NCBI GenBank assembly: GCA_049601975.1
Contig: JBMYRC010000007.1
Coordinates: 1,906-65,905 of the forward strand
Source of the DNA: Alphaproteobacteria bacterium
GTDB taxonomy: Bacteria; Pseudomonadota; Alphaproteobacteria; UBA8366
Length of the DNA stretch: 64,000 nt
Reading direction: 5' to 3'
Under the pieces are notes generated by a model. That model did no database searches and was not told the origin of the DNA. It saw only the letters and a list, made by a program, of their open reading frames with translations. The position numbers and the translations under genes were made by a program. Shown piece after piece: positions 6,442 through 37,723 of the stretch; the stretch's first letter is position 1; the number at the start of each line of letters is the position of its first letter.

Positions 6442-7272
6442 ATGGCGGCGGATAAAGTTAACTTGTCACAAGCTGTTCGCGGTAATCTTTTAACGTTGCA
6501 ACAAACAGCAACAACGATCGGTCAAACACAGACGCGTTTGTCGACGGGACTCAAAGTCAATACGGCCCTAGATGATGCTGCGGCGTTCTTTACGGCGCGT
6601 GCACTAGATAACAGGGCCTCGGATCTTAATAGTCTTAAGAGCAATATCGATCTCGCGGTCAGTACCATTCAGGCCGCAATCGACGGTATTGATGCGATTA
6701 CTGACTTGGTACAGCAGGCAAAGGGTCTTGCGAGTAACGCCAAGGCAACCGGTGATACGAACGAACGGTCGACATTGGCGGTTCAGTTTAACGAGCTCTT
6801 GAGCCAGATTGACTCCATTGCGAACGATTCGACATTTAACGGGATCAACCTGTTGCAGGCGTCACCCGATAATCTCGATGTCGTTTTCAATGAGGACAAT
6901 ACCTCGAACCTGACGATTACCGGTCTCGACTCGACGACAGCATCTACGGGTATCAACCTTAGTGTCGCCGGGAATAACTTTGGTGCAAACGCGAATATCG
7001 ATACCGCACTCACGGCGATTTCGGCCGCGCTGGTCACCTTGCGCGGCAATGCGTCAACAATGGGTTCGAGTAATACGATCTTGAAAACCCGCCTCGATTT
7101 CACCCAAAACTTGGTGAATACCCTGGAAGGTGGATCGGGCAAACTGACGCTTGCCGATTTGAACGAGGAAAGTGCGAACTTGTTGGCGCTGCAGACACGC
7201 CAGCAACTGGGCCTCAACTCCCTGTCATTGGCTGCCCAGAGCGAACGCGCAATTCTCAGCCTCTTCGGCTAG
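6442..7272 (+). CDS. fla: flagellin (short alphaproteobacterial type, 276 aa)
   Basis: Conserved flagellin N-terminus (LLTLQQT...QTRLSTGLKVNTALDDAAAFF) and C-terminus (ANLLALQTRQQLGLNSLSLAAQSERAILSLFG). A GGAG RBS lies upstream. Confidence 0.95.
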   Translation: MAADKVNLSQAVRGNLLTLQQTATTIGQTQTRLSTGLKVNTALDDAAAFFTARALDNRASDLNSLKSNIDLAVSTIQAAIDGIDAITDLVQQAKGLASNAKATGDTNERSTLAVQFNELLSQIDSIANDSTFNGINLLQASPDNLDVVFNEDNTSNLTITGLDSTTASTGINLSVAGNNFGANANIDTALTAISAALVTLRGNASTMGSSNTILKTRLDFTQNLVNTLEGGSGKLTLADLNEESANLLALQTRQQLGLNSLSLAAQSERAILSLFG

Positions 7273-7556: not shown

Positions 7557-8384
7557 ATGGCTGAGTCTGTCAATTTATCACAGTCGGTTCGCACGAACCT
7601 GCTGACACTCCAGCGAACTTCAGGTCTAATTGGTGATACTCAAACCCGTTTGTCGACGGGCTTGAAAGTCAATTCGGCTATTGATGACGCACCGGCGTTC
7701 TTCACTGCGAAAGCGTTGAGCAACGCTGCAAACGATCTCGACTCCTTGAAGTCAAATATTGACTTGGCGGTCAGTACCATTCAATCGGCGATCGACGGTA
7801 TCGACGCGATCACCGAACTGGTCAACCAAGCTAAGGGTCTTGCTAGTAACGCCAAAGCGACTGGTGATACGAACGAGCGCTCGACCTTGGCGGTGCAGTT
7901 CAACGAGCTGCTCAGCCAGATTGATACCATCGCAAATGACTCCAGTTTCAACGGCACGAACCTGCTTCAGGCGACGCCGGACAACCTGGCAGTTGAGTTC
8001 AATACTGCGAACACGAGTAACCTGACGATTACAGGCTTGGACTCGACGACTGCTTCGACCGGTATTAATATTGCCAATGCGGCGAATAACTTCGGCGCCA
8101 ACGGCAATATTGATACAGCGTTGACGGCAATTTCCACCGCGCTTTCGTCCTTGCGGTCGAACGCTTCCACGTTGGGTTCAAATAATACGATCCTTTCGAC
8201 CCGTCTGGACTTCACTGCAAACCTGGTTAATACGCTCGAAGGTGGTGAAGGGAAGCTCACTCTGGCCGATCTCAATGAGGAAAGTGCAAATTTGCTGGCT
8301 CTTCAGACCAGACAGCAGCTGGGTATTAACTCTTTGGCCCTCGCCGCGCAGAGCGAACGGTCAATTCTGGCGCTTTTCGGTTAA
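7557..8384 (+). CDS. fla: flagellin (paralogue, 275 aa)
   Basis: Collinear with the flagellin at 6442-7272, with roughly four fifths of residues identical by eye. Same conserved termini. A GGGAG RBS lies upstream. Confidence 0.95.
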   Translation: MAESVNLSQSVRTNLLTLQRTSGLIGDTQTRLSTGLKVNSAIDDAPAFFTAKALSNAANDLDSLKSNIDLAVSTIQSAIDGIDAITELVNQAKGLASNAKATGDTNERSTLAVQFNELLSQIDTIANDSSFNGTNLLQATPDNLAVEFNTANTSNLTITGLDSTTASTGINIANAANNFGANGNIDTALTAISTALSSLRSNASTLGSNNTILSTRLDFTANLVNTLEGGEGKLTLADLNEESANLLALQTRQQLGINSLALAAQSERSILALFG

Positions 8385-9443: not shown

Positions 9444-11285
9444 TTAGGTCGGCAAATCTGCAACGCAGATCACTTCGGGAGTTTGGCTCGCGACGAAGCG
9501 CCGCCACATTTCACGATAGCCACGCTCTAAATCCGACGTAAATTGAATTGTATCGAAAAGCGCCGCAGACACTCGGCTCTCAGCGATCTTATGCCGAATT
9601 CTCGTTAATTCCCCAGCGTGTGTCGCCAAGTGTTGAGCGCGCGCCGCATATTCGTCGGGCGACACCGTGATCAATTCAGGAAGATTCATCGCCAAAAGTA
9701 AACTTGAGGACACTCTGGACGCAAAATGGCGGCCTTGCATTGTGAGGACCGGTAGCCCGGCCCAGAGAGCGTCACTCGTCGTAGTATGGCCGTTGTAAAA
9801 TTGCGTGTCCAACGCGAGATCGGCGTAAGACATTCGTTCCAAATGCCGCGCTCTCGGTAACATCTCGGCGAAGACAATACGATCCGGTGCGACGCCGGCA
9901 CGAGCGGCCGCGCGGGAGAGGTTCTCTTTTGCACGTAAGTTGTTTTGGAGTATCCAAAGGGCGCTATTTGGAACTGATTTTAGTAAACTCATCCAAATTT
10001 GGAAAAAATCAAAATCTATTTTTATAGGGTTATTAAATGAACAAAATATAAATGAATATTTATTTCGAATATATAAGTAATTTTTAGGTATATCTGTGAT
10101 TTTTTCTTGAGTGTTATCGTTGCATTGATACGTATTTGGTAAAAAAACGGCATTCTCACTAAGACACTCAAGTGTCTCCGGCGGTGTTACAATTTTGTCG
10201 GTTAAAATATAATCGAAGAATTCGGCGCCGCTCGTTCCTGGAAATCCCAAATAGGTCGCTTGAATCGAGGCCGGACGTCGCGCGCAAATCCCTAGGCGGT
10301 TGTGTCTTGTATGCCCTTTGAGGTCCACAAGAATATCTATAGAGTCTCGATGGATAAGGTTTGCGGCCTCCTCGTCATTGAATGCTGAAATGTCGACAAA
10401 CTGATCGCAGGATGCGCGAATGGAATCGCGATAGTCACTGCCGTCGTTTGGTCCATGAGAGTACGCGTGGATCGAAAAACTCTCCCGGTCATGCGCCTGA
10501 AATACGCCGCGCATCAAATGGGCCGTCGCATGGTCGTGAAAATCGGCACTGAGATATCCGACGCGAATTTTGGCGTTCGGATTACGTGACGGCCTGAACT
10601 GATACTCTTCGCCATCATTTGCTGCTTCGGAAAGTTGCCGGCTCCATGATCGTGCGACATCCAAGTTTTGAACTCGCTCGTCGACACGGTGGATATTGTC
10701 GAATGGGGGTTCCGGGGTAGGGCGACCCTCTTTCAGCGCCGCGCAATTTAGGCGATCGATTTGTTCTGATAAAATTTCAAGCTCTTCGCCCCATTCACAT
10801 GTGACGCGCAGGAGAGGGTAGAGGCCGGCGCTAGCGATATTATTATCCGATTGTAATGCCAGTGACCTGCGGAACTGAACGATAGCTTCGCCAATTCGGT
10901 TGCGATCCGCGTAGACGGCGGCCAACCGATTTAGAGATTCCGGCATTGGTGACAGCACGACCCATCGCTCAAGATATGGAATGGCCGCATCAATGCGTCC
11001 GGCTTCCAATAACAGGGACGCAAGTATTGATAGTTTGTTCGTATCCGCTTCCGAATCGCGTACCGATGCGCTTAGATACTCGATTGCACTTTCGGGGTCT
11101 TTCACTTGAACACTCGCGATGCCGGCGAGGTAGAGAGCATAGACGTTTTCTTTATCCCGTGTTAGCACCTGGCGACAAAGCTCGAGCGTCTCTTGCCATT
11201 CACACAAATCCGCGTGTCGGGAGGCACTCTCAAGCATGACAAGCAGCTCTTCCGTCGCCGGATCACGATTTTCAGTCGGGCTCAT
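9444..11285 (-). CDS. TPR / GT41 (SPINDLY-like) glycosyltransferase
   Basis: Shows GT41/COG3914 signatures (IRVGYLSADFHDHATAHL, IDILVDLKGHTRHNRLGICARRPASIQATYLGFPGTSG, FCSFNNPIKI, LDTQFYNGHTTTSDALWAGLPVLT). The start is set at the ATG forming an ATGA overlap with the upstream stop (11282-11285); the ORF track extends to 11357. Confidence 0.85.
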   Translation of the reverse strand: MSPTENRDPATEELLVMLESASRHADLCEWQETLELCRQVLTRDKENVYALYLAGIASVQVKDPESAIEYLSASVRDSEADTNKLSILASLLLEAGRIDAAIPYLERWVVLSPMPESLNRLAAVYADRNRIGEAIVQFRRSLALQSDNNIASAGLYPLLRVTCEWGEELEILSEQIDRLNCAALKEGRPTPEPPFDNIHRVDERVQNLDVARSWSRQLSEAANDGEEYQFRPSRNPNAKIRVGYLSADFHDHATAHLMRGVFQAHDRESFSIHAYSHGPNDGSDYRDSIRASCDQFVDISAFNDEEAANLIHRDSIDILVDLKGHTRHNRLGICARRPASIQATYLGFPGTSGAEFFDYILTDKIVTPPETLECLSENAVFLPNTYQCNDNTQEKITDIPKNYLYIRNKYSFIFCSFNNPIKIDFDFFQIWMSLLKSVPNSALWILQNNLRAKENLSRAAARAGVAPDRIVFAEMLPRARHLERMSYADLALDTQFYNGHTTTSDALWAGLPVLTMQGRHFASRVSSSLLLAMNLPELITVSPDEYAARAQHLATHAGELTRIRHKIAESRVSAALFDTIQFTSDLERGYREMWRRFVASQTPEVICVADLPT

Positions 11286-13195
11286 GTAGTAGGTGCATTC
11301 GAATGACGAGCATATTGAGCTAGCTCGCGGGCTACTGTGGCGGCAAGGCCTTCCCAATCACCGTGGCTGCTTTGGCGGAACAAGCGCATGGTCGGATACC
11401 AAGGAGAATCTTCACGATCCATGAGATATCGCCAATCCGCATGATGACCAAGCATGACCCAAACCGGCTTGCCAAGAGCACCCGCAAGATGCGCGGTAGC
11501 GGTATCGACCGTGATCACCAAGTCGAGGGCCTCGACTGCGGCTGCCGTATCATCGAAACTGGCACATTGGGTGCCGAAATCCAGCAGATCGCCAAGAGAA
11601 TTCGGAGATATCTGTCCGACTTGAAGACTCACAAATTGGACCTGATTGACGGCCCGAATTTGTGCTAGCGCGGTTTCTGGACAGCTGCGCATACCGTCAT
11701 CTTGCCGATCTGGATTGCCGAGCCAAACCAGACCGACCTTTAGATCCGTATCGCCTAATTGGGCTCGGAATGAGTCCACTTTAGGAGATGATGGAGACAA
11801 ATAGGGTACATTGGCGGGCACGGACTCCAGAGTGGTATTGAAAATTTGGGGTATACTCATCAGGGGAATGCAGTAGTCAGCTTCCGGAAGAGTGTCCTTA
11901 CGGGCAATGACGTTTTTGATTCCCCGGAGGCTGCGACACAATTCCACCATTGGGCGCTGGCATTCGAAATGTACGTCGGCTCCTTGATCCGAAAGTAGCG
12001 TTAAATATCTGCAAAACTGTAGTGTGTCGCCAAAACCCTGTTCCGCATATACCAATAGTTTGCGACCTTGAAGCGGCTCTCCTTTCCATCGATCGATGGC
12101 AAATCGCCTGTGTTTCGCGGTGAACTGTTCCGCGTGCCAACGAGCTTCGTAATTCTGCCAGCCTTCCGCATAATTGCCCTGCATTAATTGCGCGATTCCA
12201 AGGCTCGTACGGATATCACCATTGTTTGGTGAGATGCTCAGCACTTTCGTGTATACCGCTGCGGCTTCTACTGGGTTATTTAGGTTCAACAGTGCCAGTC
12301 CGAGGTTGCCGAGCGCATTTGTGCTGTCGGGATCAGCCGAATGGGCCGTGCGATAAAGCGCTGCTGCTGCTTCGAAATTACCTTGTGAGCGCAATACATT
12401 ACCGAGATTGACCAAGGCTTCCGGCCAATCGGGACGTATCGCGATTACACGACGAAAGATGTGAGCGGCTTCTGCTAAGTCGCCGTTGGCATGAATGGCG
12501 ACACCGAGATTGTTTACAATCTCCGAATTGTCAGGTGAGATTTCTATGGCGGCGCGAAAATTCTCGATGGCTTCAGGATATTGCCGTGCATCGCAAAGGG
12601 CGAGCCCGAGATTGTTAAGTGCGTCGGTGAAATCCGGAAATAGCGCCAATGACTTTCGGGCAGCCGCTATTGCACTTGGTACCTGACTGTCGCGACGCAA
12701 GGCGAACGAGAGATTGTTAAAGGCCTCATGGGACTCTGGCTGCTTTGAGATACAATGTCGGTAATTTTCGATGGCTCCAGTAAAATCGCCTATGTGCGCT
12801 TGCGCGTTTGCCATCTGGAATTGCGTTGCAGGATCCGTTTGGTCCAGCTCAGCCGCCATTCGCAAATGGCGCAAGGCTTCGTTGGCGCTTCCGTTTGCGA
12901 GCAACACGGCACCTAAATCACGATTGAAGATTGGGTTTGCTGGCGCCTGCCTTTGAGCTTCGCCTAGATACCTGGACGCGTTATCTAAATCTCCTCGTTT
13001 TTGTGCTGTCAGGCCACGCAAATGCCAGGCGATATCCGCATTTGGCACGGCCTCAAGCACTTGGCGGAGGATCTCTTCCACGCGAGGAAGATCATTCTGG
13101 TCGTACGCTCGAAGAGCGTCCGCAAGAACAGCAGAGAGGCTGCCGACTAAAGGTTTGGTATTTTGCTCTTCAGACGCAGTCATGCTGCATTTCAC
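11282..13195 (-). CDS. TPR-repeat / GT9 (heptosyltransferase-fold) glycosyltransferase fusion
   Basis: About 9 TPR units (AFNNLSFAL, ALNNLGLAL, IVNNLGVAI, ALVNLGNVL, ALGNLGLAL) are followed by a GT9-like C-terminal domain: LLVYAEQGFGDTLQFCRYL, VGLVWLGNP, LVITVDTATAHLAGALGKPVWVML. Confidence 0.8.
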   Translation of the reverse strand: MKCSMTASEEQNTKPLVGSLSAVLADALRAYDQNDLPRVEEILRQVLEAVPNADIAWHLRGLTAQKRGDLDNASRYLGEAQRQAPANPIFNRDLGAVLLANGSANEALRHLRMAAELDQTDPATQFQMANAQAHIGDFTGAIENYRHCISKQPESHEAFNNLSFALRRDSQVPSAIAAARKSLALFPDFTDALNNLGLALCDARQYPEAIENFRAAIEISPDNSEIVNNLGVAIHANGDLAEAAHIFRRVIAIRPDWPEALVNLGNVLRSQGNFEAAAALYRTAHSADPDSTNALGNLGLALLNLNNPVEAAAVYTKVLSISPNNGDIRTSLGIAQLMQGNYAEGWQNYEARWHAEQFTAKHRRFAIDRWKGEPLQGRKLLVYAEQGFGDTLQFCRYLTLLSDQGADVHFECQRPMVELCRSLRGIKNVIARKDTLPEADYCIPLMSIPQIFNTTLESVPANVPYLSPSSPKVDSFRAQLGDTDLKVGLVWLGNPDRQDDGMRSCPETALAQIRAVNQVQFVSLQVGQISPNSLGDLLDFGTQCASFDDTAAAVEALDLVITVDTATAHLAGALGKPVWVMLGHHADWRYLMDREDSPWYPTMRLFRQSSHGDWEGLAATVARELAQYARHSNAPTT

Positions 13196-23271: not shown

Positions 23272-23787
23272 ATGGCCGATGAGTTCGATGATGACGATGA
23301 ATTAGGCGAAGGCGATGTGTCCGGATCAGGCGGCGGTCTAAAGAAATTACTGCTATTTGTTGGTGCTCCGGTTCTATTGTTGATCATCGGTGGTGCGGTC
23401 GCTTATTTTTTGGGTGCGTTCGACTCGTTTTTCGGTCCGTCGCCGGAAGAACTTGAAGCTGAGCAACAACAATTGGACTCATTGGGTTATTTTTTTGAGC
23501 TTGAAGAGATGCTTGTCAGCATGGGGCGCGCCGGTCGTAAATCTAGCTTTCTGAAACTTCGCATCAGTTTGGAGTTAGAGAAGAAAGAGGACGAGCAGAG
23601 GATCAAGGCGGTGATGCCTCGGATCGTCGACAATTTCCAAGTGTTTCTGCGTGGCTTGCGGATTGAGGAATTACAGGGTTCGCACGGTCTTTACCGCATA
23701 AAGGAAGAGCTATTGGTGCGGGTAAACGCGGCAGCCAAACCGGTAAAGGTGAAAGATGTTCTCTTTAAGGAAATGTTGGTACAATAA
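23272..23787 (+). CDS. fliL: flagellar basal-body-associated protein FliL
   Basis: Single TM segment followed by the FliL pattern FLKLRISLELEKKEDEQRIKAVMPRIVDNFQVFLRGLRIEEL. Confidence 0.9.
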   Translation: MADEFDDDDELGEGDVSGSGGGLKKLLLFVGAPVLLLIIGGAVAYFLGAFDSFFGPSPEELEAEQQQLDSLGYFFELEEMLVSMGRAGRKSSFLKLRISLELEKKEDEQRIKAVMPRIVDNFQVFLRGLRIEELQGSHGLYRIKEELLVRVNAAAKPVKVKDVLFKEMLVQ

Positions 23788-23830
23788 CTGATAAGCTTAA
23801 TGCTGGTGAAATAGCCCGCTGGGTATCGCC

Positions 23831-24943
23831 ATGATGATGGATGACGAAAACGAAAATATAGCCGATGACTGGGCGGCGTCGCTGGAAGAAAGTGGCGACG
23901 GCGGTGAGGACGGCGACGCTCTTGCTGACGAATGGGCTGCCATGGCCGATGGCGGCGGCGATGATGGCTATGCCGAAAGCTCCCGCGTCCTCGATCAGTC
24001 CGAAATCGATAGTCTGCTCGGCTTCCAAGGAGGAGATGGGACCGAAAGCGAGCGTTCGGGCATTGAGGCCATTATCGACAGCGGTATGGTGTCGTATGAA
24101 CGTCTACCGATGTTGGAGGTCGTATTCGACCGTCTCGTTCGGATGATGTCGACATCGTTGCGTAATTTCACATCCGATAACGTCGATGTCAGCCTAGACA
24201 ATATAACGTCAATTCGTTTTGGGGACTATTTAAACTCCATTCCGTTACCCGCGATGCTGACGGTGTTTAAGGTGGAGGAATGGGATAACTTCGGGCTGAT
24301 TACGGTCGACAGTTCGCTCATTTACTCAATTGTTGATGTGTTGCTCGGTGGGCGGCGCGGTACGGCGGCAATGCGTATTGAAGGGCGGCCTTATACGACC
24401 ATCGAACGAAATCTCGTCGAACGCCTGATCAATGTTGTCCTCACCGATCTGGGTGGTGCATTTGATCCGTTGGCGTCTGTCATCTTTAGGTTTGACCGTC
24501 TTGAAACCAACCCGCGGTTTGCGACGATTGCGAGACCTGCTAATGCCGCGATCGTAGCCCGGTTGCGAATTGATATGGAAGACCGTGGTGGCAGATTAGA
24601 ATTGCTGCTGCCCTACGCGACGCTGGAACCGGTGCGCGAACTCTTGCTGCAAATGTTCATGGGTGAGAAGTTTGGTCGCGACTCAATTTGGGAAAACCAC
24701 TTAGCTACGGAATTGTGGTTTACGGACGTGGAATTGGACGCCGTATTGGACGAGGTTACAGTCTCTCTCAAGGATGTATTGAATTGGGAAGTTGGATCGC
24801 GTCTCGACCTTCAGGTCACGCCGGACACGACGGTTGATCTGAGGTGCGGAGAAAATTCGATGTTTCGTGGCCGGATGGGACGTAAAGGTGGTAGTATCGC
24901 AGTGCGGATCGATCAAAAACTAGACCAACCCCAAGTTCAGTAG
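23831..24943 (+). CDS. fliM: flagellar motor switch protein FliM
   Basis: Contains the N-terminal CheY-P binding motif LDQSEIDSLLGF and a middle domain with LPAMLTVFKVEEWDNFGLITVDSSLIYSIVDVLLGG. Confidence 0.9.
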   Translation: MMMDDENENIADDWAASLEESGDGGEDGDALADEWAAMADGGGDDGYAESSRVLDQSEIDSLLGFQGGDGTESERSGIEAIIDSGMVSYERLPMLEVVFDRLVRMMSTSLRNFTSDNVDVSLDNITSIRFGDYLNSIPLPAMLTVFKVEEWDNFGLITVDSSLIYSIVDVLLGGRRGTAAMRIEGRPYTTIERNLVERLINVVLTDLGGAFDPLASVIFRFDRLETNPRFATIARPANAAIVARLRIDMEDRGGRLELLLPYATLEPVRELLLQMFMGEKFGRDSIWENHLATELWFTDVELDAVLDEVTVSLKDVLNWEVGSRLDLQVTPDTTVDLRCGENSMFRGRMGRKGGSIAVRIDQKLDQPQVQ

Positions 24944-24957
24944 GAAAGGTAACAGGA

Positions 24958-25443
24958 ATGTTATTTCCTCAACTTTCTTTGTTTTTGGAAGTCATAGGCG
25001 CGACATTACTCGGCGTTATGATCGTTTATGCGATCCGGTTGAATCGCCGTCTATCCACTCTGCAGGAAGATAAGGCGGAATTTGAACGGCTATTGTTGAG
25101 TTTTACGGATTCAACCAGTCGCGCCGAAACAAGCGTCGCACGATTGAAGGCGAGCGCCATCGATACGGCCCAATCCTTGCAGGAGAGTGTGACGCGCGCG
25201 CAGGCCTTGCGTGATGATCTTGCGTTTATGGTGGACAGGGCTGATGATTCAGCCAATCGGCTTGAAAACGGAATTCGCGATGCTCGCCCGGAACAAGCAA
25301 TGCGCGGTAGTGCCGCGCAAAATGTGACAAGCGGAGAGAAAGTAAGCGCCGAACCGAGCGAACCCGAGCTGGATAGCAATAAAGATTCTGGCCAGCGAAA
25401 GACCAAATCGGATTTGCTTAAGGCGCTTGAAGGGATGCGATAG
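24958..25443 (+). CDS. hypothetical membrane-anchored coiled-coil protein, flagellar-cluster associated
   Basis: One N-terminal TM helix followed by a helical or charged region. It is tightly packed between fliM and the MotE-like gene. No family was recognised with certainty. Confidence 0.5.
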   Translation: MLFPQLSLFLEVIGATLLGVMIVYAIRLNRRLSTLQEDKAEFERLLLSFTDSTSRAETSVARLKASAIDTAQSLQESVTRAQALRDDLAFMVDRADDSANRLENGIRDARPEQAMRGSAAQNVTSGEKVSAEPSEPELDSNKDSGQRKTKSDLLKALEGMR

Positions 25444-25446
25444 GCC

Positions 25447-26124
25447 ATGACAGGTCGCGTCAGAATACTGCCTTTGATGATTATTGTGTTGGCTTTGCTG
25501 TTCTCGGTAAAACTCGGGAACATTTGGCATGGCGCATCGACGGTCGATTTCGGCGATGGAATCAACGTGCAGCCGGCGATGGCGCAGCAATCCAATGAAG
25601 GGCAAGCCAATTCCGATGCTGACTCGTCGGAGGGTGGCGCACCGCCGGGCTCGAAACCGCTGCAGAAAACGGATGTAGAAACGCCAGTGCTTGGTGATCC
25701 CAATCGGTTTAGTGAGCGAGAAGTGCAGCTCCTTCAGGAATTAGCGGAACGGCGCACGGTGCTTGATGCCAGAGAGAAACAGCTCGAAGAACGGGAAGTT
25801 TTGTTGAAAGCGGCCGAGCAACGTCTGGTTGAGAAACAGACTGAGTTGACAAGCACGAAGGAAGAAATTGTTGCCCTTCTGAAGCAACAAGATAAGCAGG
25901 AGAAGGCCAAAATAAACCAACTCGTCGCAATTTATGAAAATATGAAGCCGAAAGATGCAGCGAATATTTTTGATGAATTGGAGATGCCGGTCCTCCTGCA
26001 GGTGATAAAAAACATGAAGGAGCGGAAAGTAGCTCCTGTGATCGCGTCAATGAGCGCTGATAAAGCACGTTCCCTGACGAAAGAGCTCGCGGATCAGCGT
26101 AAGCTTCCTGCTTTACCAAACTGA
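25447..26124 (+). CDS. MotE-like protein (MgtE_N-type flagellar motility protein)
   Basis: N-terminal anchor, a coiled coil (REKQLEEREVLLKAAEQRLVEKQ), then LVAIYENMKPKDAANIFDELEMPVLLQVIKNMKERKVAPVIASMSADKARSLT, typical of MotE/FlbB-type proteins. Confidence 0.65.
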   Translation: MTGRVRILPLMIIVLALLFSVKLGNIWHGASTVDFGDGINVQPAMAQQSNEGQANSDADSSEGGAPPGSKPLQKTDVETPVLGDPNRFSEREVQLLQELAERRTVLDAREKQLEEREVLLKAAEQRLVEKQTELTSTKEEIVALLKQQDKQEKAKINQLVAIYENMKPKDAANIFDELEMPVLLQVIKNMKERKVAPVIASMSADKARSLTKELADQRKLPALPN

Positions 26125-26260
26125 CATTATTAGTTTAGATGTTAACCACGATAACTAACAATTAATGCTAGTAGATTAAGCGCCCAATCATGGTGGTCTA
26201 TGGCCCAAGATTGTGGAATTAGTGCTCGCCCAAAGAGACCTAAGGATTAGTTTTAAGAAT

Positions 26261-26647
26261 ATGGCTGTAGATATGCAAATGCCGATCCTCATCGTAGATG
26301 ATTATAAAACGATGTTGCGGATCGTTAGGAATCTCCTGAAGCGAGTTGGATTCGAGAATGTTGACGAAGCTGCCGACGGCGGCGAAGCATTCAATAAAAT
26401 GAAAGAGAAGCAATACGGCTTGGTAATTTCTGATTGGAATATGGAACCGGTGACTGGAATTCAATTGCTTCAGCAAGTGCGGGCTGATGCTAATATGAAA
26501 GACACACCGTTTATCATGATTACTGCTGAAAGTAAGACTGAGAACGTAATTGCATCCAAGGGAGCGGGCTTTAGCAACTATATCGTTAAACCGTTCAATG
26601 CGGAAACCTTGAAGCAAAAACTGACGGCAGTCCTTGGTGCCTTTTAA
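26261..26647 (+). CDS. cheY: CheY-like single-domain response regulator
   Basis: ILIVDDYKTM (acidic pocket), LVISDWNMEPVTG (phospho-acceptor Asp), ITAE, and KPF with the conserved Lys. The start is set at the ATG at 26261. Confidence 0.9.
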   Translation: MAVDMQMPILIVDDYKTMLRIVRNLLKRVGFENVDEAADGGEAFNKMKEKQYGLVISDWNMEPVTGIQLLQQVRADANMKDTPFIMITAESKTENVIASKGAGFSNYIVKPFNAETLKQKLTAVLGAF

Positions 26648-26673: not shown

Positions 26674-27207
26674 TTGGATTCTTCCCTTCATAAGCATATG
26701 ACTGAACTACGAGCGGCAGGCGACAGGAATGTGTTGCTTTCCGAAACCAATGATATCGTCAAAAGCGTCATGAAAGGCCTGGAAGGAAAAGTCTTTGGTA
26801 TGGATATTCGCGTATTTGGCGAATTTGAATCGCTCAGCGAAGCGATTAAATCAGCACGCAGCGAATTATCTACACTAAGTCTCGAAGGTATTCGAAATGA
26901 GCATATACCGGCGTCGAAGGATGAATTAGATGCCGTCGTTCGAATTTTTGAAGCCTGTAGCTTTCAGAATATTAAAGGTCAGCGCATTACGAAGGTCGTG
27001 CGGACACTTAAGTTCATTGAACCAAAGGTTGACGAAGTGTTATTGGCTTTTGGTGATGATGTCGCGCGAGAGCGTAAAAACGATCTTGATGCGGAATTAG
27101 ATACGGCGTCCGACCGGGCGGATGAGCAAATCCTACATGGTCCTCAATCGGAAGGCGAAGCGTCTCCACAGGACGATATAGATAAGCTTCTCGCCAGCTT
27201 TGATTAA
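26674..27207 (+). CDS. cheZ: CheZ-like CheY-P phosphatase (divergent)
   Basis: ACSFQNIKGQRITKVV corresponds to the CheZ active-site helix (E. coli FQDLTGQ). The acidic C-terminal DDIDKLLASFD resembles the CheY-binding peptide. It lies directly downstream of cheY. A TTG start is proposed; an alternative ATG lies at 26698. Confidence 0.6.
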   Translation: MDSSLHKHMTELRAAGDRNVLLSETNDIVKSVMKGLEGKVFGMDIRVFGEFESLSEAIKSARSELSTLSLEGIRNEHIPASKDELDAVVRIFEACSFQNIKGQRITKVVRTLKFIEPKVDEVLLAFGDDVARERKNDLDAELDTASDRADEQILHGPQSEGEASPQDDIDKLLASFD

Positions 27208-27901: not shown

Positions 27902-28609
27902 ATGTTTGCAGAGGAGCATCGACCGGAACAAAAAACGCAGGTCCCAACCTGGTTAGTCAGCTTCGCCGATGTCATGGCGCTGATGCTCGCATTTTTTGTG
28001 ATGCTGTTTTCCATGAGCAATATTCAGACGGAGACATGGGACGCTATAATTTCGCAGATATCACCTTCCGAGACGCTTAAAAAGGAAGAGACGCCAAGGC
28101 CGCAGGCGACAAAGAATATAGCGACGGTTAAACTTAGCGAAGCTTTGTCGCTCGACTATTTGGCAAATGTCTTGGAGGAGCATCTTTCGGTGGACGCGTT
28201 GTTGAACGATGCGTCGGTACATCGTCTCGACGGATTGGTTGTCGTATCGTTGCCGTCGGATACGATGTTTCCTGCGGGTGAAGTTGGATTAACCGAAGCG
28301 GCGCGCGAGGCTTTGTTTCGTATGGGGGGAATTATTACAAGTATCGGCAACAGGATCGACGTGAGAGGCCATACGGACCCGGTATCGACGACGGATGGCA
28401 CATACGCATCGAAATGGACGATTTCGTTGGCACGTGCGGCCGCCGTAGCGAATGAATTGCGACGTACTGGTTATGGTAGGCAAATTCCGATCTATGGTCT
28501 TGCGGATACCCGGTTTATTCATCTGGACGAACAAATTCCCGAATCAGCCCGTTTCGTGTTGGCGCGCCGGGTAGATGTCGTCGTGCATCCGCATTCAGGT
28601 GATATCTGA
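27902..28609 (+). CDS. motB: flagellar stator protein MotB
   Basis: VPTWLVSFADVMALMLAFFVMLF carries the proton-channel Asp. The OmpA-like domain reads VVVSLPSDTMFPAGEVGLTEAAREAL...IDVRGHTDPV...WTISLARAAAVANELRRTGY. Confidence 0.85.
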   Translation: MFAEEHRPEQKTQVPTWLVSFADVMALMLAFFVMLFSMSNIQTETWDAIISQISPSETLKKEETPRPQATKNIATVKLSEALSLDYLANVLEEHLSVDALLNDASVHRLDGLVVVSLPSDTMFPAGEVGLTEAAREALFRMGGIITSIGNRIDVRGHTDPVSTTDGTYASKWTISLARAAAVANELRRTGYGRQIPIYGLADTRFIHLDEQIPESARFVLARRVDVVVHPHSGDI

Positions 28610-31600
28610 TGGCGATCATACACTTGTTCATTGTTGCCCTCGGATTGCTGTTCGTTGCAACTCCAGCATATTCGAAAGAAAACGTGCGAGTTCGTGGAGG
28701 AGGGCATGCGGAATTTGGTCGTTTGGTTTTCGATTGGCCGGCGAGCGTCGGTTATAAAGCGGAAATTACTGGACGCAATCTGATCGTAAGATTTAATCGT
28801 CCGATGTCGGCGAATTTCGAAGCTGCGGTCTCCACTCTGGACGATTTTGTAAGTGGTGCCGGTTTGTCCGGAGATAATAAAACCGCGACGATCCGCCTTT
28901 TAGGGGATTATTCCCTGCGGACTTTCGAGAACGGTAACTCGATTGTGGTGGATGTGGTCCGCAAACCGGGTGATGCTTCGGCTGGAGGGGCGTCCGCCCC
29001 CACGCTTAAGGTGCGCAAAGGGCAGCATCCAAATTACGATCGTCTCGTCTTCGATTGGACCCGTCCGGTAGAGTATAATGTTTCGCGCGATGGCGGCCGC
29101 CTCAGTGTTGGATTTAATCGATCGGCCAAGATTGATATTGCAGCGTTACGTTCGGGATTGGGGCGTGTTTTCACCAAGCCGACGGCAAAGACCGAGCCAA
29201 CGAAACTGACATTTGCCGTCGACGTCGACGCGTCGGCTCGAATTCGGCATTTCCGTGCGGGCTACAAAGTAGTTTTGGATGTCTTTCGGAGGACAGACGA
29301 TAAAACCGCGCAAGTAAGTCCGAAACCCACAGCGGCACCGCCTCAAGTCTCAGCGGCACCTGTTGTTCCCGTGAAACGGGATGCTCCTGTCGAGAAGGAT
29401 AAAACGAGCGAACCAAAATCGACAGGGCCGGTCCCACTTGTCTCCAAAGACAAGAAAGCCGATACGGCGAAAGAGGAACAATCTACGGCTAGCGGAAAGG
29501 CGGAACTTGAAAAAGCGAAAGCCAAGTCTGAGCTGAGCAAGAAAGTTGAAGAAACGGTTGCAGTTCAGCAAGGAGCTGAAAAAGAACCGAGCGAGAAACC
29601 TGCTCCAGAGACGAAAGCTGATACAGTTGAGATGCCAAAAGTTGTGGAGGGGAAAGAAGTAGCCGCCGCCAAAGAAGATGAGCCTCAGAATGAACCGCTT
29701 GGAGCGGCGCCGGATCCTGTCACTCTCGTGTTCGAATGGCCGCAAGTAGTCAGCATGGCGGCGTTTCGTCGAAACCAATATGTGTGGATTGTATTTGGTT
29801 TGAGAACGCCAATACAGACAACGCCGCTATTGCAACAAAGCAGAACCTTGATTGATCGGTTTGACCAAATTCCGTCGGGTCAAGCGACGATTTTGAGGAT
29901 TCAGACGAAGAATGAGCAAATTAATGTATCGAAAGTTCAGTTGAATGGGACCAACTGGCTCATCGAATTCTCTCAATCGCCGATGCAACCAAGCGCACAA
30001 ATTAGCTTCGGGGTGAGCGATGCCGGTGCGCAAGGCGCACAATTACTGATGCCGGTGGACGGTTTGGGCCAATTGTTTACGTTCCAAGACCCCGACGTCG
30101 GCGATAGTATCCAGGTGGTTTCCGTTGTTGCGCCGGGCCTCGGTATGGATGGCGAGCGGGCCTATCCGGAATTTCAAATTCTCGCCTCGGCCCAAGGCGT
30201 TGCAATCGAGAGCTTTAACGCGGATTTGGTTCTCAACAAACTTGAGAAAGCAATCGTATTCGGGGGGCCACAAGGTCTATACGTCTCTAAAGTGGCCAAA
30301 GTGCCGTCTAAATTGGACTCAAGTGCACGCAGTCAGGCAGTGACCTTAGGGGCGATTGGGTCGCAAATACTGCGCCCTGATAAATGGCAACGGCGAGAAG
30401 AAGAACTCATCGAAGTACGACAGGAGCTGATGAACGGCATCATCAAGCAAAGCCCTAAACGGCGTGCGAAAGGTCGAACTGAACTCGCGCGTTACAATTT
30501 CTCGCATGGATATGCACAGGAAGCCCTTGGCATTCTCAATGTGGTAGAAGCCACCGATCTTGAAGCTGGGTCGACCGCAGAATTCGTCGCCTTAAAGGGC
30601 GCGGTGTTGGTTTTGGCGGAACGTGGGAAAGCTGCGCAGAAGTCACTTAATGATCCACGCTTGGACGCTTATCAAGACGTCGCTATATGGCGAGGGGCAG
30701 CGGATTATCTTGCTAACGATATTGAATCCGCCGCTAAGAATTTCGACACCGGTGATCCGTCGCTTCAAACCTATCCAAACCCATTGAAGGCAAAGCTGCT
30801 TGTAAAGCGTTTGACGGTAGCGCTTGAGACAGAACAGTTAGAACTCGCCAAAAAATGGCGGGATAAAGTCGGAGAGGAACTCAATTCATTCGGCCCGATT
30901 TACAAAGCGCGTCTCAGTTATCTTTTTGGTCAACTCTATCGGCTTGAACTCGACCTTGATAATGCTGTCGGCGCTTATCAGGTGGCGGCCGACAGTCAGG
31001 ACCATTGGAGCGCTGTCCGAGCGGAGTACGACCTTATTGATCTCAATCTACAACAGGAGACTATTGAAGTAACCAACGCGATTCAGCGATTGGAGCGGCT
31101 TCGTTTCGCATGGCGCGGCGACGCATTTGAACGCAAGGTATTGAATCGATTGGGTGACCTTTACATTGCGGTTGGAGATTACCGTAACGGCCTCAATACG
31201 CTCAAAGTGATTGTGAGTTATTTTGCGAAACATCCGGATGCGGCGGAAACGGCCAAGAAAATGGGTGACGTATTCCGAAACCTTTATCTTGAAGGTGAAG
31301 CGGACAATATTTCACCGCTAAAAGCGTTGGCACTTTACGATGAGTTCCGTGAACTAACGCCGGCGGGCCCTGAAGGTAATTTGATGATTCAAATGCTGGC
31401 CGAGCGGCTCGTTGATGTCGACCTTTTGGATAAAGCCGCGGCTGTTTTGGGACATCAGGTTAAGTTTCGTTTACGTGGCGAGGAGAAAGCGGCTGTCGGA
31501 ACCAAGCTCGCACTGGTTCGATTGATTGCACGTGATCCTCAGGGTGCGCTCAATGCGCTGCGCGACAGTTTTTATCCAAACGTTTCTCTGGAAATCGAAA

Positions 31601-32124
31601 ATGATCGTCGCCGAATTAGAGCAAAAGCGGAATTTGAACTCGGCAAGGCCAACGATGCCATTGCTCTTCTTGCGGGGGATGTGAGCCGTGAGGCAGATTT
31701 GTTGCGGAGTGCTATTTATTTCCGCGAGGCGAATTGGGGAGAAGCAGGGAAGATCTATCAAAGGTTGGTCGGCAATCCGCCAGCAGATGGCGAGGTAATG
31801 GACCAAGAGTTGGGGCGGACTATACTTCTCTGGGCCGTAGCGTTGAAGTTGAATCGCGATGAAGACGGACTACGACAGCTCTTCGACCTTTATGGACCGA
31901 GCATGCGCTCGAGCCCAATGGCTGCGACATTCGATTATATCGCAAAACCCTCCGAAGGGAGTGGGTTTGATCTGGGCTCAATTCAGAAGCAAATTGCCGA
32001 TGTCGATCAATTTCAGGCTTTTATGAAAAATTATCGCGAGCGGTTATTGAAATCCCGCGACGGAGCTAAGTCTTCCACTGGCGCACAATCTTCCAGACAA
32101 TCCACGGCGACGCCAAGCGGTTAA
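28609..32124 (+). CDS. large secreted protein (1171 aa) of unknown family: three AMIN-like repeats, a Pro/Glu/Lys-rich linker and a long TPR-like helical C-terminal region; putative motor-associated periplasmic scaffold
   Basis: The ATG overlaps the motB stop (TGATG at 28607-28611). The signal peptide is MAIIHLFIVALGLLFVATPAYS. Internal repeats were read directly: VRVRGGGHAEFGRLVFDW...VVDVVRK, LKVRKGQHPNYDRLVFDW...VLDVFRR and VTLVFEWPQ. The low-complexity PEK region spans about aa 229-370. Confidence 0.6.
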   Translation: MAIIHLFIVALGLLFVATPAYSKENVRVRGGGHAEFGRLVFDWPASVGYKAEITGRNLIVRFNRPMSANFEAAVSTLDDFVSGAGLSGDNKTATIRLLGDYSLRTFENGNSIVVDVVRKPGDASAGGASAPTLKVRKGQHPNYDRLVFDWTRPVEYNVSRDGGRLSVGFNRSAKIDIAALRSGLGRVFTKPTAKTEPTKLTFAVDVDASARIRHFRAGYKVVLDVFRRTDDKTAQVSPKPTAAPPQVSAAPVVPVKRDAPVEKDKTSEPKSTGPVPLVSKDKKADTAKEEQSTASGKAELEKAKAKSELSKKVEETVAVQQGAEKEPSEKPAPETKADTVEMPKVVEGKEVAAAKEDEPQNEPLGAAPDPVTLVFEWPQVVSMAAFRRNQYVWIVFGLRTPIQTTPLLQQSRTLIDRFDQIPSGQATILRIQTKNEQINVSKVQLNGTNWLIEFSQSPMQPSAQISFGVSDAGAQGAQLLMPVDGLGQLFTFQDPDVGDSIQVVSVVAPGLGMDGERAYPEFQILASAQGVAIESFNADLVLNKLEKAIVFGGPQGLYVSKVAKVPSKLDSSARSQAVTLGAIGSQILRPDKWQRREEELIEVRQELMNGIIKQSPKRRAKGRTELARYNFSHGYAQEALGILNVVEATDLEAGSTAEFVALKGAVLVLAERGKAAQKSLNDPRLDAYQDVAIWRGAADYLANDIESAAKNFDTGDPSLQTYPNPLKAKLLVKRLTVALETEQLELAKKWRDKVGEELNSFGPIYKARLSYLFGQLYRLELDLDNAVGAYQVAADSQDHWSAVRAEYDLIDLNLQQETIEVTNAIQRLERLRFAWRGDAFERKVLNRLGDLYIAVGDYRNGLNTLKVIVSYFAKHPDAAETAKKMGDVFRNLYLEGEADNISPLKALALYDEFRELTPAGPEGNLMIQMLAERLVDVDLLDKAAAVLGHQVKFRLRGEEKAAVGTKLALVRLIARDPQGALNALRDSFYPNVSLEIENDRRRIRAKAEFELGKANDAIALLAGDVSREADLLRSAIYFREANWGEAGKIYQRLVGNPPADGEVMDQELGRTILLWAVALKLNRDEDGLRQLFDLYGPSMRSSPMAATFDYIAKPSEGSGFDLGSIQKQIADVDQFQAFMKNYRERLLKSRDGAKSSTGAQSSRQSTATPSG

Positions 32125-33299: not shown

Positions 33300-33584
33300 T
33301 TAGTCGACCGTCGTGTTGCTGTCTTCAGTAGTATTTTCCAATTTATCCTGATGTTCGCCAACGAAATTGGAATACGACTGTAAATCACCCAAAAGCGCAG
33401 ATAACGGTTCGCGTATTTCACCGGCATCCTCGGGTGAAAAATCCGCCACGACTTGACAGGCTTCATCTACTTTCGCCTGCATCAGTTCCATATCAAGATA
33501 CTGATTTTCCTTCAGTTTATCTTGTCCCATTGCCACAATTCCACGTAACACCTCTATTTCGGCAATCAGTTCGTCTTTTGTCAT
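33300..33584 (-). CDS. small acidic helical protein, unknown function (possible flagellar export chaperone/adaptor)
   Basis: 94 aa, acidic, predicted helical. Its start overlaps the stop of the FlhB-C-like gene (ATGA). No motif was recognised. Confidence 0.4.
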   Translation of the reverse strand: MTKDELIAEIEVLRGIVAMGQDKLKENQYLDMELMQAKVDEACQVVADFSPEDAGEIREPLSALLGDLQSYSNFVGEHQDKLENTTEDSNTTVD

Positions 33585-33925
33585 GATGAGTCCACCTCTG
33601 GCATTTGTGTGCCGTTTGCTGCGTAAACATACCTTAAAATCTCGGCGACGGCGATTAAGGCTTCCACTGGTATCTCCGTATCGATATCCGCCGCCGCCAA
33701 CATTTCGGCCAGATCGGCATCTTCTCTTACCCGCACACCCTCTGCAAAGGCGATATCCATAATATTGTCAGCCAGGTTTCCGCGTCCGGATGCAACAATT
33801 TTTGGCAGGGAATTTGGTCCCGTCGGGCGGTGTTCTATGGCGACGGCAATGGAACTTTTTGCCGGTTCTTTAGCGTCAGTCACTTTTACCGAGAGGGGAT
33901 TACCAGATCGCCGTATCTTTTTCAT
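33581..33925 (-). CDS. FlhB C-terminal-domain-like protein (EscU/YscU/HrcU family, stand-alone)
   Basis: AVAIEHRP...LPKIVASGRGNLADNIMDIAFAEGVRVREDADLAEMLAAADIDTEIPVEALIAVAEILRYVY is collinear with the FlhB cytoplasmic domain after the NPTH site. There is no TM region. Confidence 0.75.
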   Translation of the reverse strand: MKKIRRSGNPLSVKVTDAKEPAKSSIAVAIEHRPTGPNSLPKIVASGRGNLADNIMDIAFAEGVRVREDADLAEMLAAADIDTEIPVEALIAVAEILRYVYAANGTQMPEVDSS

Positions 33926-36616: not shown

Positions 36617-37723
36617 ATGTCGGAAGACGCAGACAAGTCATCAAAAACAGAAGAACCGACGTCCAAGAAATTGACGGACTCACGGGAGCGCGGTTCTGTC
36701 GCGGTCAGCCGTGAGGTCAACACGTGGATGTTGTTGATGGCTGGTGCAATTGCCTTGGTTATGTTTTCCGAAAGTATTGCGAGTGACCTCAACGCGATGC
36801 TGTTAAAATTCGTCGAGAGTCCGCATGCCTTCAGTTTTGACGGTAATAATATGCATGCAGTTCTGTCGGGTGTCCTCATGGATTTCCTGCAGATTTTGTC
36901 GCTACCTTTCATATTATTCGTAATTGTCGCCTTGGCGGCGGGCGTTCTACAAAACGGTATTTCGTTTTCGCCCAAAGCACTTGCGCCGAAATTTGATAAA
37001 TTTAACCCGATTAATGGTTTCAAGAGAATTTTTTCGGGCAAACAAATCGTAGAGTTCGTTAAGGGTATCCTCAAAATTGCCATTGTCGGCAGCGTTGCCG
37101 CAATTCCGCTATTGCCGACATTTGAACGTATTGATGCCCTACCTACTTACGACATCGCTTATTTACCGGGACAGCTGCGTGAATTGGTAATTATGCTGTT
37201 TACCGGCGTTTTAGCAGTACTTGCCGTGATTGCGATTATCGATCTTATCTATCAGCGCTGGGAACATAGCCGTAGCCTTCGCATGACGAAGCAGGAAGTG
37301 AAAGACGAGCACAAACAGACGGAAGGCGACCCGACAGCGAAACAACGCTTGCGGAAAGTTCGAATGGAACGCGCGCAGAGACGTATGATGCAGGCCGTAC
37401 CGGACGCCGATGTCGTGATAACGAACCCAACGCATTTCGCCATTGCTATGAAATATGATCCGGAAACCATGAGTGCGCCGTTACTCGTGGCGAAAGGGCA
37501 GGATCTCGTGGCCTTTAAGATCAGGGAGATCGCGGAAGAGAACGATATTACCATCGTCGAGAACAAGCCTTTGGCTCAGGCGTTGTATTTCGGTGTCGAT
37601 ATCGATGAAGAAGTCCCCGAGGAGCACTATAAGGCCGTGGCGGAAATCATCAGTTATGTTTGGAATGTGAAAGGGCGCTCGATGCCGGCACCAGTTGGCG
37701 AACCCGCTGCGGCAGCGGAATAA
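36617..37723 (+). CDS. flhB: flagellar export switch protein FlhB
   Basis: KTEEPTSKKLTDSRERGSVAVSREV, MTKQEVKDEHKQTEGDPTAKQRLR, and the autocleavage site VVITNPTHFAIAMKY. Confidence 0.95.
   Translation: MSEDADKSSKTEEPTSKKLTDSRERGSVAVSREVNTWMLLMAGAIALVMFSESIASDLNAMLLKFVESPHAFSFDGNNMHAVLSGVLMDFLQILSLPFILFVIVALAAGVLQNGISFSPKALAPKFDKFNPINGFKRIFSGKQIVEFVKGILKIAIVGSVAAIPLLPTFERIDALPTYDIAYLPGQLRELVIMLFTGVLAVLAVIAIIDLIYQRWEHSRSLRMTKQEVKDEHKQTEGDPTAKQRLRKVRMERAQRRMMQAVPDADVVITNPTHFAIAMKYDPETMSAPLLVAKGQDLVAFKIREIAEENDITIVENKPLAQALYFGVDIDEEVPEEHYKAVAEIISYVWNVKGRSMPAPVGEPAAAAE

Follow-up and report, generated by a model that had tools for sequence, protein, structure and literature searches.

The open reading frame (ORF) at positions 28609-32124 of a 64,000-nucleotide (nt) stretch of contig JBMYRC010000007.1 (Alphaproteobacteria bacterium, assembly GCA_049601975.1, positions 1,906 to 65,905 of the forward strand; hereafter the window) encodes a protein of 1171 amino acids (aa) that combines AMIN-like beta domains with a long tetratricopeptide-type (TPR) solenoid, and is referred to here as the AMIN-TPR protein. 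This protein is likely to be exported by the Sec pathway and to serve the polar flagellar motor as an accessory protein in the periplasm, namely as the Rhodospirillales-type FssB, belonging to the same class as MotK and PflA. Its membership in this known class follows from its sequence, which is related to that of a Caulobacter sp. protein, from its predicted fold, which matches PflA, and from its architecture and operon, which resemble those of MotK. The initial annotation, made from the DNA alone, had proposed a novel periplasmic motor scaffold that could not be assigned to any described family. The scaffold part of that proposal was borne out by the secreted AMIN-TPR layout, the flagellar operon, the coupling to motB and the analogy with PflA. 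The claim of novelty fails, because reports from 2021 to 2026 had already described the FssB/MotK/PflA class to which the protein belongs, and a member of its family appears in a catalogue published in 2025.

Gene start and domain architecture

The limits of the ORF and the overlap of its start with the end of motB are as first reported. The last base of the motB stop codon TGA (28607-28609) is at the same time the first base of the AMIN-TPR start codon ATG (28609-28611), forming TGATG, and the sequence AGGTGA is found 8 nt 5' of this ATG. The N-terminus of the product, MAIIHLFIVALGLLFVATPAYS followed by KE, was read by eye as a hydrophobic core with an A-x-S site, in agreement with the signal peptide ending in AYS that had been suggested, and residues 3-17 were modelled by AlphaFold2 as a helix with a low predicted local distance difference test (pLDDT) score. 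The protein hence reads, from its sequence, as one that is Sec-exported to the periplasm.

An AlphaFold2 model was built on 35 homologues (mean pLDDT 79) and, together with the family alignment and profile comparisons, gave the domain layout listed in Table 1. All of the elements that the initial annotation had made out in the translation were recovered. The two internal repeats of about 95 aa (aa 26-119 and 133-228) are 32% identical by BLASTP (E = 3e-12), and their profiles match each other with a probability of 99.9% (E = 7e-31). Their proposed resemblance to AMIN domains is supported by the Pfam AMIN-like family PF24837, which scores 28.1 bits on repeat 2 against a cut-off of 27, a marginal match restricted to aa 133-158, and by a weak match between the family profile and the AMIN region of PilQ among PDB chain sequences (E = 0.002). 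PF24837 is also precomputed on many homologues of the AMIN-TPR protein, and PF11741 on one. In the family alignment, residues R145, F148 and F169 of the second AMIN-like domain are invariant.

The Pro/Glu/Lys-rich linker, originally put at about 140 aa, extends over 138 residues (aa 229-366), of which 22 are K, 20 A, 19 E and 16 P; it is modelled as disordered and is the least conserved and length-variable region of the family. The third, more divergent repeat begins with VTLVFEWPQ at aa 371 (nt 29719), and its relationship to repeats 1 and 2, which is weak in pairwise BLASTP (E = 0.03), is clear in profile comparison (97-98%, E = 1e-11 to 1e-13). The beta-rich region that had been noted after it is a separate domain (aa 462-558), designated B4, in which D494 and G530 are invariant. 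No similarity between B4 and the AMIN repeats was detected by profile comparison. When modelled alone, the third repeat (B3) and B4 form one packed unit, with a predicted TM-score (pTM) of 0.82.

A short linker (aa 559-589) separates B4 from the solenoid, which was estimated at about 500 aa of helical TPR-like repeats and in the model comprises about 520 residues in some 28 helices. The family profile matches designed as well as natural TPR proteins among PDB chain sequences. A search of the target and four relatives against NCBIfam returned only sub-threshold matches to the TPR models of YbgF, PorW and SctY. Within the solenoid, the most conserved core includes the motifs FAWRGD and YDEFRELTPxG, and we infer that this core is a candidate partner-binding site.

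Relationship to FssB of Caulobacter

FssB (CC_2058/CCNA_02137; Q9A6M9/WP_010919921.1) is a Sec-secreted TPR protein of Caulobacter crescentus that is required for stator activity, and deletion of fssB leaves the filament in place but paralyses the motor (Hershey, Fiebig & Crosson 2021; PMC7885107). In C. crescentus, CC_2058, the product of which has 958 aa in strain CB15, adjoins CC_2059. A search of the literature for later work on FssB retrieved nothing relevant.

The AMIN-TPR protein aligned with a protein of 982 aa (P0354) over 795 residues with 28% identity (BLASTP E = 2e-74), the alignment covering B3, B4, the TPR region and the terminal helix, and a separate match of the AMIN part was obtained at E = 5e-6. 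Another member of the same 90% cluster, P0369, is named 'Caulobacter sp.'. P0354 was reached via the weak tail of a search with an Azospirillum paralogue described below, and then via its cluster and gene context. Hidden Markov models (HMMs) of the individual domains match P0354 (TPR, E = 2e-156; B3, 1e-21; B4, 2e-22; AMIN, 3e-16), which gives the architecture AMIN-B3-B4-TPR. The Caulobacter sp. locus (L086) consists of flgH-flgA-flgG-flgF, followed by fliL-fliM, genes for a DUF6468 protein and a 263-aa protein, the gene of interest, and then fliP. As the same arrangement is reported for CC_2059/CC_2058, the gene of interest occupies the position of fssB. Homology to the Caulobacter protein at the FssB locus thus provides the described family that the initial annotation had been unable to name.

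Judged by the Caulobacter sp. protein, FssB and the AMIN-TPR protein have in common a putative Sec-type N-terminus, an AMIN-like domain, the B3-B4 module, a TPR solenoid of about 560 residues and the same conserved motifs. In the Caulobacter sp. locus, as in the window, the gene follows fliL, fliM and the genes for the DUF6468 (PflI) and MotE proteins and is convergent with fliP. However, the window protein is longer (1171 aa versus 958-982 aa), and it has a second AMIN-like domain at the N-terminus and a tether of about 135 rather than about 50 residues. Furthermore, four genes, encoding a receiver-domain (REC) protein, a CheZ-like protein, a MotB-like protein and MotB, are inserted in the window between motE and the AMIN-TPR gene, and the latter is translationally coupled to motB, whereas the Caulobacter sp. 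cluster has no motB.

In one Caulobacter-like metagenome contig (L085, 6367-9404), gene calling breaks an FssB-type gene into two parts of 508 and 467 aa, and a member of the same 90% cluster has 988 aa. The split is probably due to a frameshift or an assembly error.

Comparison with PflA, MotK and MotC

FssB, MotK, MotC and PflA have been proposed to represent one class of E-ring-associated TPR spokes across phyla (PMC11870540, PMC13023049, PMC12054838), and FlgY/MotE/FlbB have been proposed to form the E-ring. PflA of Campylobacter jejuni and Helicobacter pylori consists of a beta-sandwich, a linker and a spoke of 16 TPRs that positions PflB, FliL and the stators (PMC12222027; PMC12054838; PMC11870540). 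PflA forms radial spokes that act as a scaffold for the stators and touch the E-ring made of FlgY, and its beta domain, equivalent to AMIN, binds PflB.

When the whole model of the AMIN-TPR protein was compared with 350,542 PDB chains using Foldseek, the top match was chain 9hmf_K (E = 3.2e-11, probability 1.00, 810 aligned columns). Entry 9HMF is an in situ model of the periplasmic scaffold of C. jejuni, and chain K was identified as PflA because its 773 residues fit only that protein (788 aa minus the signal peptide). The predicted fold offers corroboration, and no proof, of the assignment. The 810 aligned columns correspond in length to the part of the window protein from B3 to the C-terminus (806 aa), and, going by this length match only, AMIN1-AMIN2 and the tether would extend the PflA plan. 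The two proteins share an AMIN-like beta-sandwich, a linker and a long TPR superhelix, and both co-occur with an E-ring protein of the FlgY/MotE type containing MgtE_N. PflA differs in having 788 aa with a single beta domain, and in working together with PflB. The architectural likeness to the Campylobacter scaffolds PflA and PflB, to which attention had been drawn initially, therefore holds for PflA, the top fold match. The transmembrane segment and the central antiparallel beta pair that are said to define PflB are lacking.

MotK of the Cereibacter sphaeroides Fla2 system (Q3IY86/WP_041669865.1) is a periplasmic protein in which a disordered, proline-rich linker joins an N-terminal AMIN-like beta domain to a C-terminal TPR region (Velez-Gonzalez et al. 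2024; PMC10954123). It is required for rotation, binds MotE and MotB2, and its localisation is stator-dependent (PMC10954123); the operon is fliL2-pflI-motE-motA2-motK. By description, MotK and the AMIN-TPR protein have the same succession of AMIN-like domain, disordered linker and TPR region, and their genes share an operon with motE and a stator gene. MotK is smaller, with 652 aa, a single AMIN-like domain and no B3-B4 module described, and its gene follows motA2 and not motB.

In following motB, the window gene resembles motC of Sinorhizobium meliloti. MotC (WP_010968742.1; Eggenhofer et al. 2004, as cited in PMC13023049) is a periplasmic, TPR-only protein of 434 aa that is encoded directly after motB; it is linked in function to MotE, and rotation depends on it. 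Compared by description, the window gene is likewise located immediately downstream of motB, and the TGATG overlap is conserved, but its product, at 1171 aa, contains three AMIN-like domains as well as another beta domain. Both observations of the initial annotation, namely the motC-like position and a length nearly three times that of MotC, are therefore accurate.

Distribution of the family and its flagellar context

Full-length homologues of about 930-1440 aa are encoded by Rhodospirillales and other Alphaproteobacteria, including Azospirillum, Thalassobaculum, Pelagibius, Eilatimonas, Roseibium and many Acetobacteraceae, and the annotation of all of them goes no further than 'TPR repeat protein' or 'hypothetical'. 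In a collection with one genome per species, scanning for a motif yielded at least 580 matches confirmed by tblastn. The domain HMMs reveal a conserved modular plan, (AMIN1)-AMIN2-tether-B3-B4-TPR, and forms of about 950 aa with a single AMIN domain occur within flagellar clusters of Acetobacteraceae and Caulobacterales.

The 2025 catalogue of PflA homologue candidates by Feng et al. (PMC11870540) covers Thalassospira, Magnetospirillum and Rhodospirillum centenum with proteins in the range of 1100-1170 aa, listed alongside the FlgY genes of these organisms. An example is a 1169-aa protein of Thalassospira xiamenensis that lies five accession numbers after the FlgY homologue of this species. 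Catalogued accessions include WP_007092345.1 for T. xiamenensis, WP_148207475.1 for Magnetospirillum and WP_012566105.1 for R. centenum. One member of the family studied here, P0133 (WP_248707145.1), is catalogued there as a PflA/PflB homologue candidate, and matches the AMIN-TPR protein in BLASTP with E = 5e-24 (TPR) and 4e-13 (AMIN). The Sediminicoccus rosea protein P0145 (WP_318646915.1) was also considered as a catalogued member, and was set aside because its accession number differs from that in the catalogue.

Shorter relatives were found as well. The second (lateral) flagellar cluster of Azospirillum lipoferum 4B, on plasmid AZO_p5, encodes an 831-aa AMIN-tether-TPR paralogue (L084, 6849-9344) directly before motA-motB. 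As this protein is without B3-B4, its layout is MotK-like. It is matched by the family profiles of the TPR domain (E ~1e-52) and AMIN (E ~1e-8), and the homologues retrieved with it were almost all from Azospirillum. Relatives of 548-618 aa consisting of the TPR part only are encoded in plasmid flagellar clusters of Erythrobacter and Salipiger. The FAWRGD motif is kept in the Azospirillum paralogue, and is represented by WRGD in Salipiger and WRG in Erythrobacter.

Every homologue for which the gene context was seen, comprising 80 genome loci and six further loci, lies in a flagellar cluster. Homologues widespread outside flagellar loci, which the initial annotation had named as grounds for abandoning its reading, were thus not seen, and neither were family members in non-flagellated genomes.

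In the window, the flagellar cluster spans approximately 6.4-37.7 kb, and the AMIN-TPR gene is the last of a same-strand string of genes for FliL, FliM, a DUF6468 protein, an MgtE_N protein, a CheY-like receiver, a CheZ-like protein, a MotB-like protein and MotB, convergent with fliP-fliO. The conservation of this arrangement was assessed in the sample of 80 related genome loci, with a denominator of 65, 73 or 74 depending on the count. The gene directly upstream of the AMIN-TPR gene is motB in 71 of 74 loci; an MgtE_N gene lies no more than 4.5 kb upstream in 62/65, a DUF6468 gene is found upstream in 60/65, and fliP is convergent downstream in 50/74. In 59 of 73 loci the in-frame start overlaps the motB stop, mostly as ATGA or TGATG, or is separated from it by no more than 2 nt, and translational coupling with motB is therefore a conserved feature.

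The MotE-like protein and the MotB-like paralogue to which the initial annotation referred are both encoded upstream. The product of the ORF at 25447-26124 is called MotE/FlgY-like on account of its hydrophobic segment, coiled coil, MgtE_N domain (31.3 bits, Pfam cut-off 25.9) and a match below the cut-off to the NCBIfam model collar_FlbB of the spirochaete collar protein (E = 2e-9). It is the predicted E-ring subunit and partner of the AMIN-TPR protein. In the MotB-like paralogue, a transmembrane segment is combined with a plug-like stretch, and its matches to the MotB_plug and MotD/MotB models are weak. The channel Asp, present as F-A-D in the true MotB, is replaced in it (FLSLFLLLLAFF), as well as in 22 of 22 orthologues examined out of about 50 collected, and the gene is found in 47/65 related loci. 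This protein may be a non-conducting 'pseudo-stator' subunit.

Table 1. Coordinates of the AMIN-TPR gene, the domains of its product and the associated genes in the window.
Feature	Position	Strand	Basis or remark
AMIN-TPR protein, whole ORF, 1171 aa; probable FssB/PflA-class periplasmic protein	28609..32124	+	ORF reading, homologues
Signal-peptide-like N-terminus, aa 1-22, predicted cleavage after AYS	28609..28674	+	Direct reading of the translation
AMIN-like domain 1, aa 24-119	28678..28965	+	8-strand beta domain, pLDDT ~90; 99.9% profile match to domain 2
AMIN-like domain 2, aa 130-229	28996..29295	+	Pfam PF24837; weak profile match to PilQ AMIN region
Disordered K/A/E/P-rich tether, aa 230-365	29296..29703	+	pLDDT <50; composition
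Third, divergent AMIN-like domain (B3), aa 366-458	29704..29982	+	Profile match to AMIN1/AMIN2; pLDDT >90
Beta domain (B4), aa 462-558, packed against B3	29992..30282	+	B3+B4 model
TPR-like superhelix, aa 590-1112, ~28 helices	30376..31944	+	Model, pLDDT ~90; PDB TPR matches
Most conserved solenoid core, aa 821-960; FAWRGD (833-838), YDEFRELTPxG (910-920)	31069..31488	+	Family alignment
C-terminal long helix, aa 1122-1151, then disordered tail	31972..32061	+	Model
motB, MotB_plug and OmpA domains; stop overlaps AMIN-TPR start	27902..28609	+	Pfam
MotB-like paralogue without the conserved channel Asp, 232 aa	27200..27898	+	Directly upstream of true motB
MotE/FlgY/FlbB-like protein; N-terminal hydrophobic segment, coiled coil, MgtE_N	25447..26124	+	Pfam, NCBIfam
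DUF6468 protein at the PflI position of Caulobacter/Cereibacter operons	24958..25443	+	Equivalence to PflI by position only
fliL and fliM, first genes of the same-strand string	23272..24943	+	Pfam, synteny

Weighing of alternative roles

Several findings weigh against the assignment to the FssB/MotK/PflA class. The link to FssB rests on a protein of 982 aa from a Caulobacter sp. metagenome-assembled genome, compared with 958 aa in CB15. The TM-scores of the match to chain 9hmf_K are low (0.14/0.19), and generic eukaryotic TPR solenoids come next at E-values of 4e-8 and above, about three orders of magnitude behind PflA. When the family profile was compared with all PDB chain sequences, no flagellar-scaffold chain was present in the 40 matches at E of 1 or below, and the literature also reports no sequence conservation with PflA. 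B4 is without a fold assignment, as a search of the PDB with the B3+B4 model gave nothing at E of 0.001 or below, the best match being a PilQ chain at E = 0.027. In addition, neither motA nor a PflB-like rim protein was identified among the ORFs scanned in this 64 kb of the genome, which comprised all those of 230 aa or longer and, within the cluster, most of those below this length; in other respects the cluster is nearly complete, and both motB and the MotB-like gene are present. The other TPR ORFs of the window appear to be fusions to glycosyltransferases of family 41 (GT41). Peptidoglycan binding by the AMIN-like domains is assumed by analogy with AmiC and PilQ, as discussed for MotK, whereas the equivalent domain of PflA binds PflB.

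The protein could instead be a soluble activator of the MotC type, which would bind the periplasmic part of MotB transiently, so that the plug opens or the channel becomes active. The MotE-like protein would then serve solely as a chaperone for it, a role originally suggested for MotE towards MotC in Sinorhizobium. Such a role would fit a gene that directly follows motB and is coupled to it, as S. meliloti requires balanced expression of motB and motC, and would fit the stabilisation of MotC by MotE; in Caulobacter, mutations in the MotB plug suppress the loss of fssA, a factor from the screen that identified fssB (PMC7885107). However, the window protein is almost three times as long as MotC, three AMIN-like domains and a long tether are features of an anchored scaffold, and in the fold search a structural spoke came out first. 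The finding that MotE-sfGFP reaches the motor without MotK or stators also speaks against a chaperone-only role. We therefore regard a role as activator alone as unlikely, though the two roles are not mutually exclusive and may coexist.

A location at the rim, as a PflB-like or other disk component that makes no contact with MotE/FlgY and forms a clade-specific, peptidoglycan-associated ring around the stators, is very improbable. The large TPR content, AMIN domains that could set the protein near peptidoglycan, and the failure to see a second TPR scaffold gene in the cluster among the window ORFs scanned would be compatible with it, but the hallmarks of PflB are missing, PflA ranks first in the fold search, and co-occurrence with an MgtE_N gene is conserved. 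We attach next to no likelihood to the remaining alternative, that a general envelope TPR/AMIN protein, related to PilF/PilQ of type IV pili, to LapB/YbgF or to cell-division proteins, came to lie in the flagellar cluster by chance. The weak profile matches to YbgF, PorW/SprE and PilQ on which it draws are far below the family cut-offs, and although homologues are named 'LapB' and 'cellulose synthase operon protein C' in databases, identification as a generic envelope protein of this kind was discarded given the invariably flagellar context and conserved gene order of the 80 genome loci and six further loci. The Caulobacter family member, moreover, has a motility phenotype.

Proposed function of the AMIN-TPR protein

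By analogy with the characterised members of the class, the C-terminal TPR superhelix (~520 residues) of the AMIN-TPR protein would form a radial periplasmic spoke, and its conserved core (aa 821-960) would contact the ring of the MotE/FlgY-like protein, the periplasmic part of MotB, or both. The B3-B4 module beside the solenoid would correspond to the beta-sandwich of PflA, and the two N-terminal AMIN-like domains, on a tether of about 135 residues, could reach peptidoglycan or another partner in the envelope. Such an assembly would hold the stator units in place and active, and loss of the protein would be expected to produce flagellated but paralysed cells. The overlap between the motB stop codon and the AMIN-TPR start codon, being conserved, suggests that scaffold and MotB are made in a fixed ratio.

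A more speculative extension, which we consider rather unlikely, is that the extra tethered tandem AMIN module and the MotB paralogue lacking the channel Asp together form a peptidoglycan-anchored, non-conducting 'pseudo-stator' cage that fixes the number or position of the stators. If so, the cage would be a clade-specific outer layer of Rhodospirillales-type motors, lacking in motors of the Caulobacter and Campylobacter types, with its stoichiometry set by motB-coupled translation.

Periplasmic accessory scaffolds set the number of stators per motor and therefore torque, and, according to a recent proposal, the module of E-ring plus spoke (FlgY/MotE with PflA/MotK/FssB) is of ancient origin and occurs widely. 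The window adds a clearly delimited, sequence-coherent subfamily, present in Rhodospirillales and their relatives, with one or two AMIN domains, a tether, the AMIN-like B3, B4 and the TPR solenoid. The analysis further provides a direct sequence bridge to the Caulobacter protein at the FssB locus, together with the conserved candidate interaction site (FAWRGD, YDEFRELTPxG) and the conserved translational coupling to motB. The differences from the characterised members, namely the extra AMIN domain, the longer tether and the motB coupling, are quantitative, and the result refines the existing picture and opens no new one. Relatives tractable for genetics and cryo-electron tomography are available in Magnetospirillum, Azospirillum, Thalassospira and Rhodospirillum centenum, for none of which an in situ motor structure was found in a literature search.

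Other genes of the flagellar cluster

The CheY-like receiver (26213-26647, forward strand), encoded between the MotE-like and MotB-like proteins, is kept in 53/65 of the related loci. The gene for the CheZ-like protein (26674-27207, forward strand), inside the fliL-to-motB string, is kept in 41/65.

Near fliO/fliP, an ORF of 114 aa (33581-33925, reverse strand) matches only the C-terminal part of FlhB (positions 261-335 of Bac_export_2). A full-length flhB is found separately at 36617-37723 (forward strand), and the short ORF is kept in most of the related loci.

Two flagellin genes (6442-7272 and 7557-8384, forward strand) are flanked by four TPR ORFs of 637-726 aa, at 6-1994 and 1991-4171 on the forward strand and at 9444-11357 and 11282-13195 on the reverse strand. 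Three of the four also match Glyco_transf_41 (GT41, O-GlcNAc-transferase-like); with the fourth (11282-13195), the best 25 of 27 matching families are all of the TPR type. Genes for a WbqC-like protein and a DegT-type aminotransferase are located near the flagellins, and these, with the TPR/GT41 ORFs, are candidate flagellin glycosylation genes.

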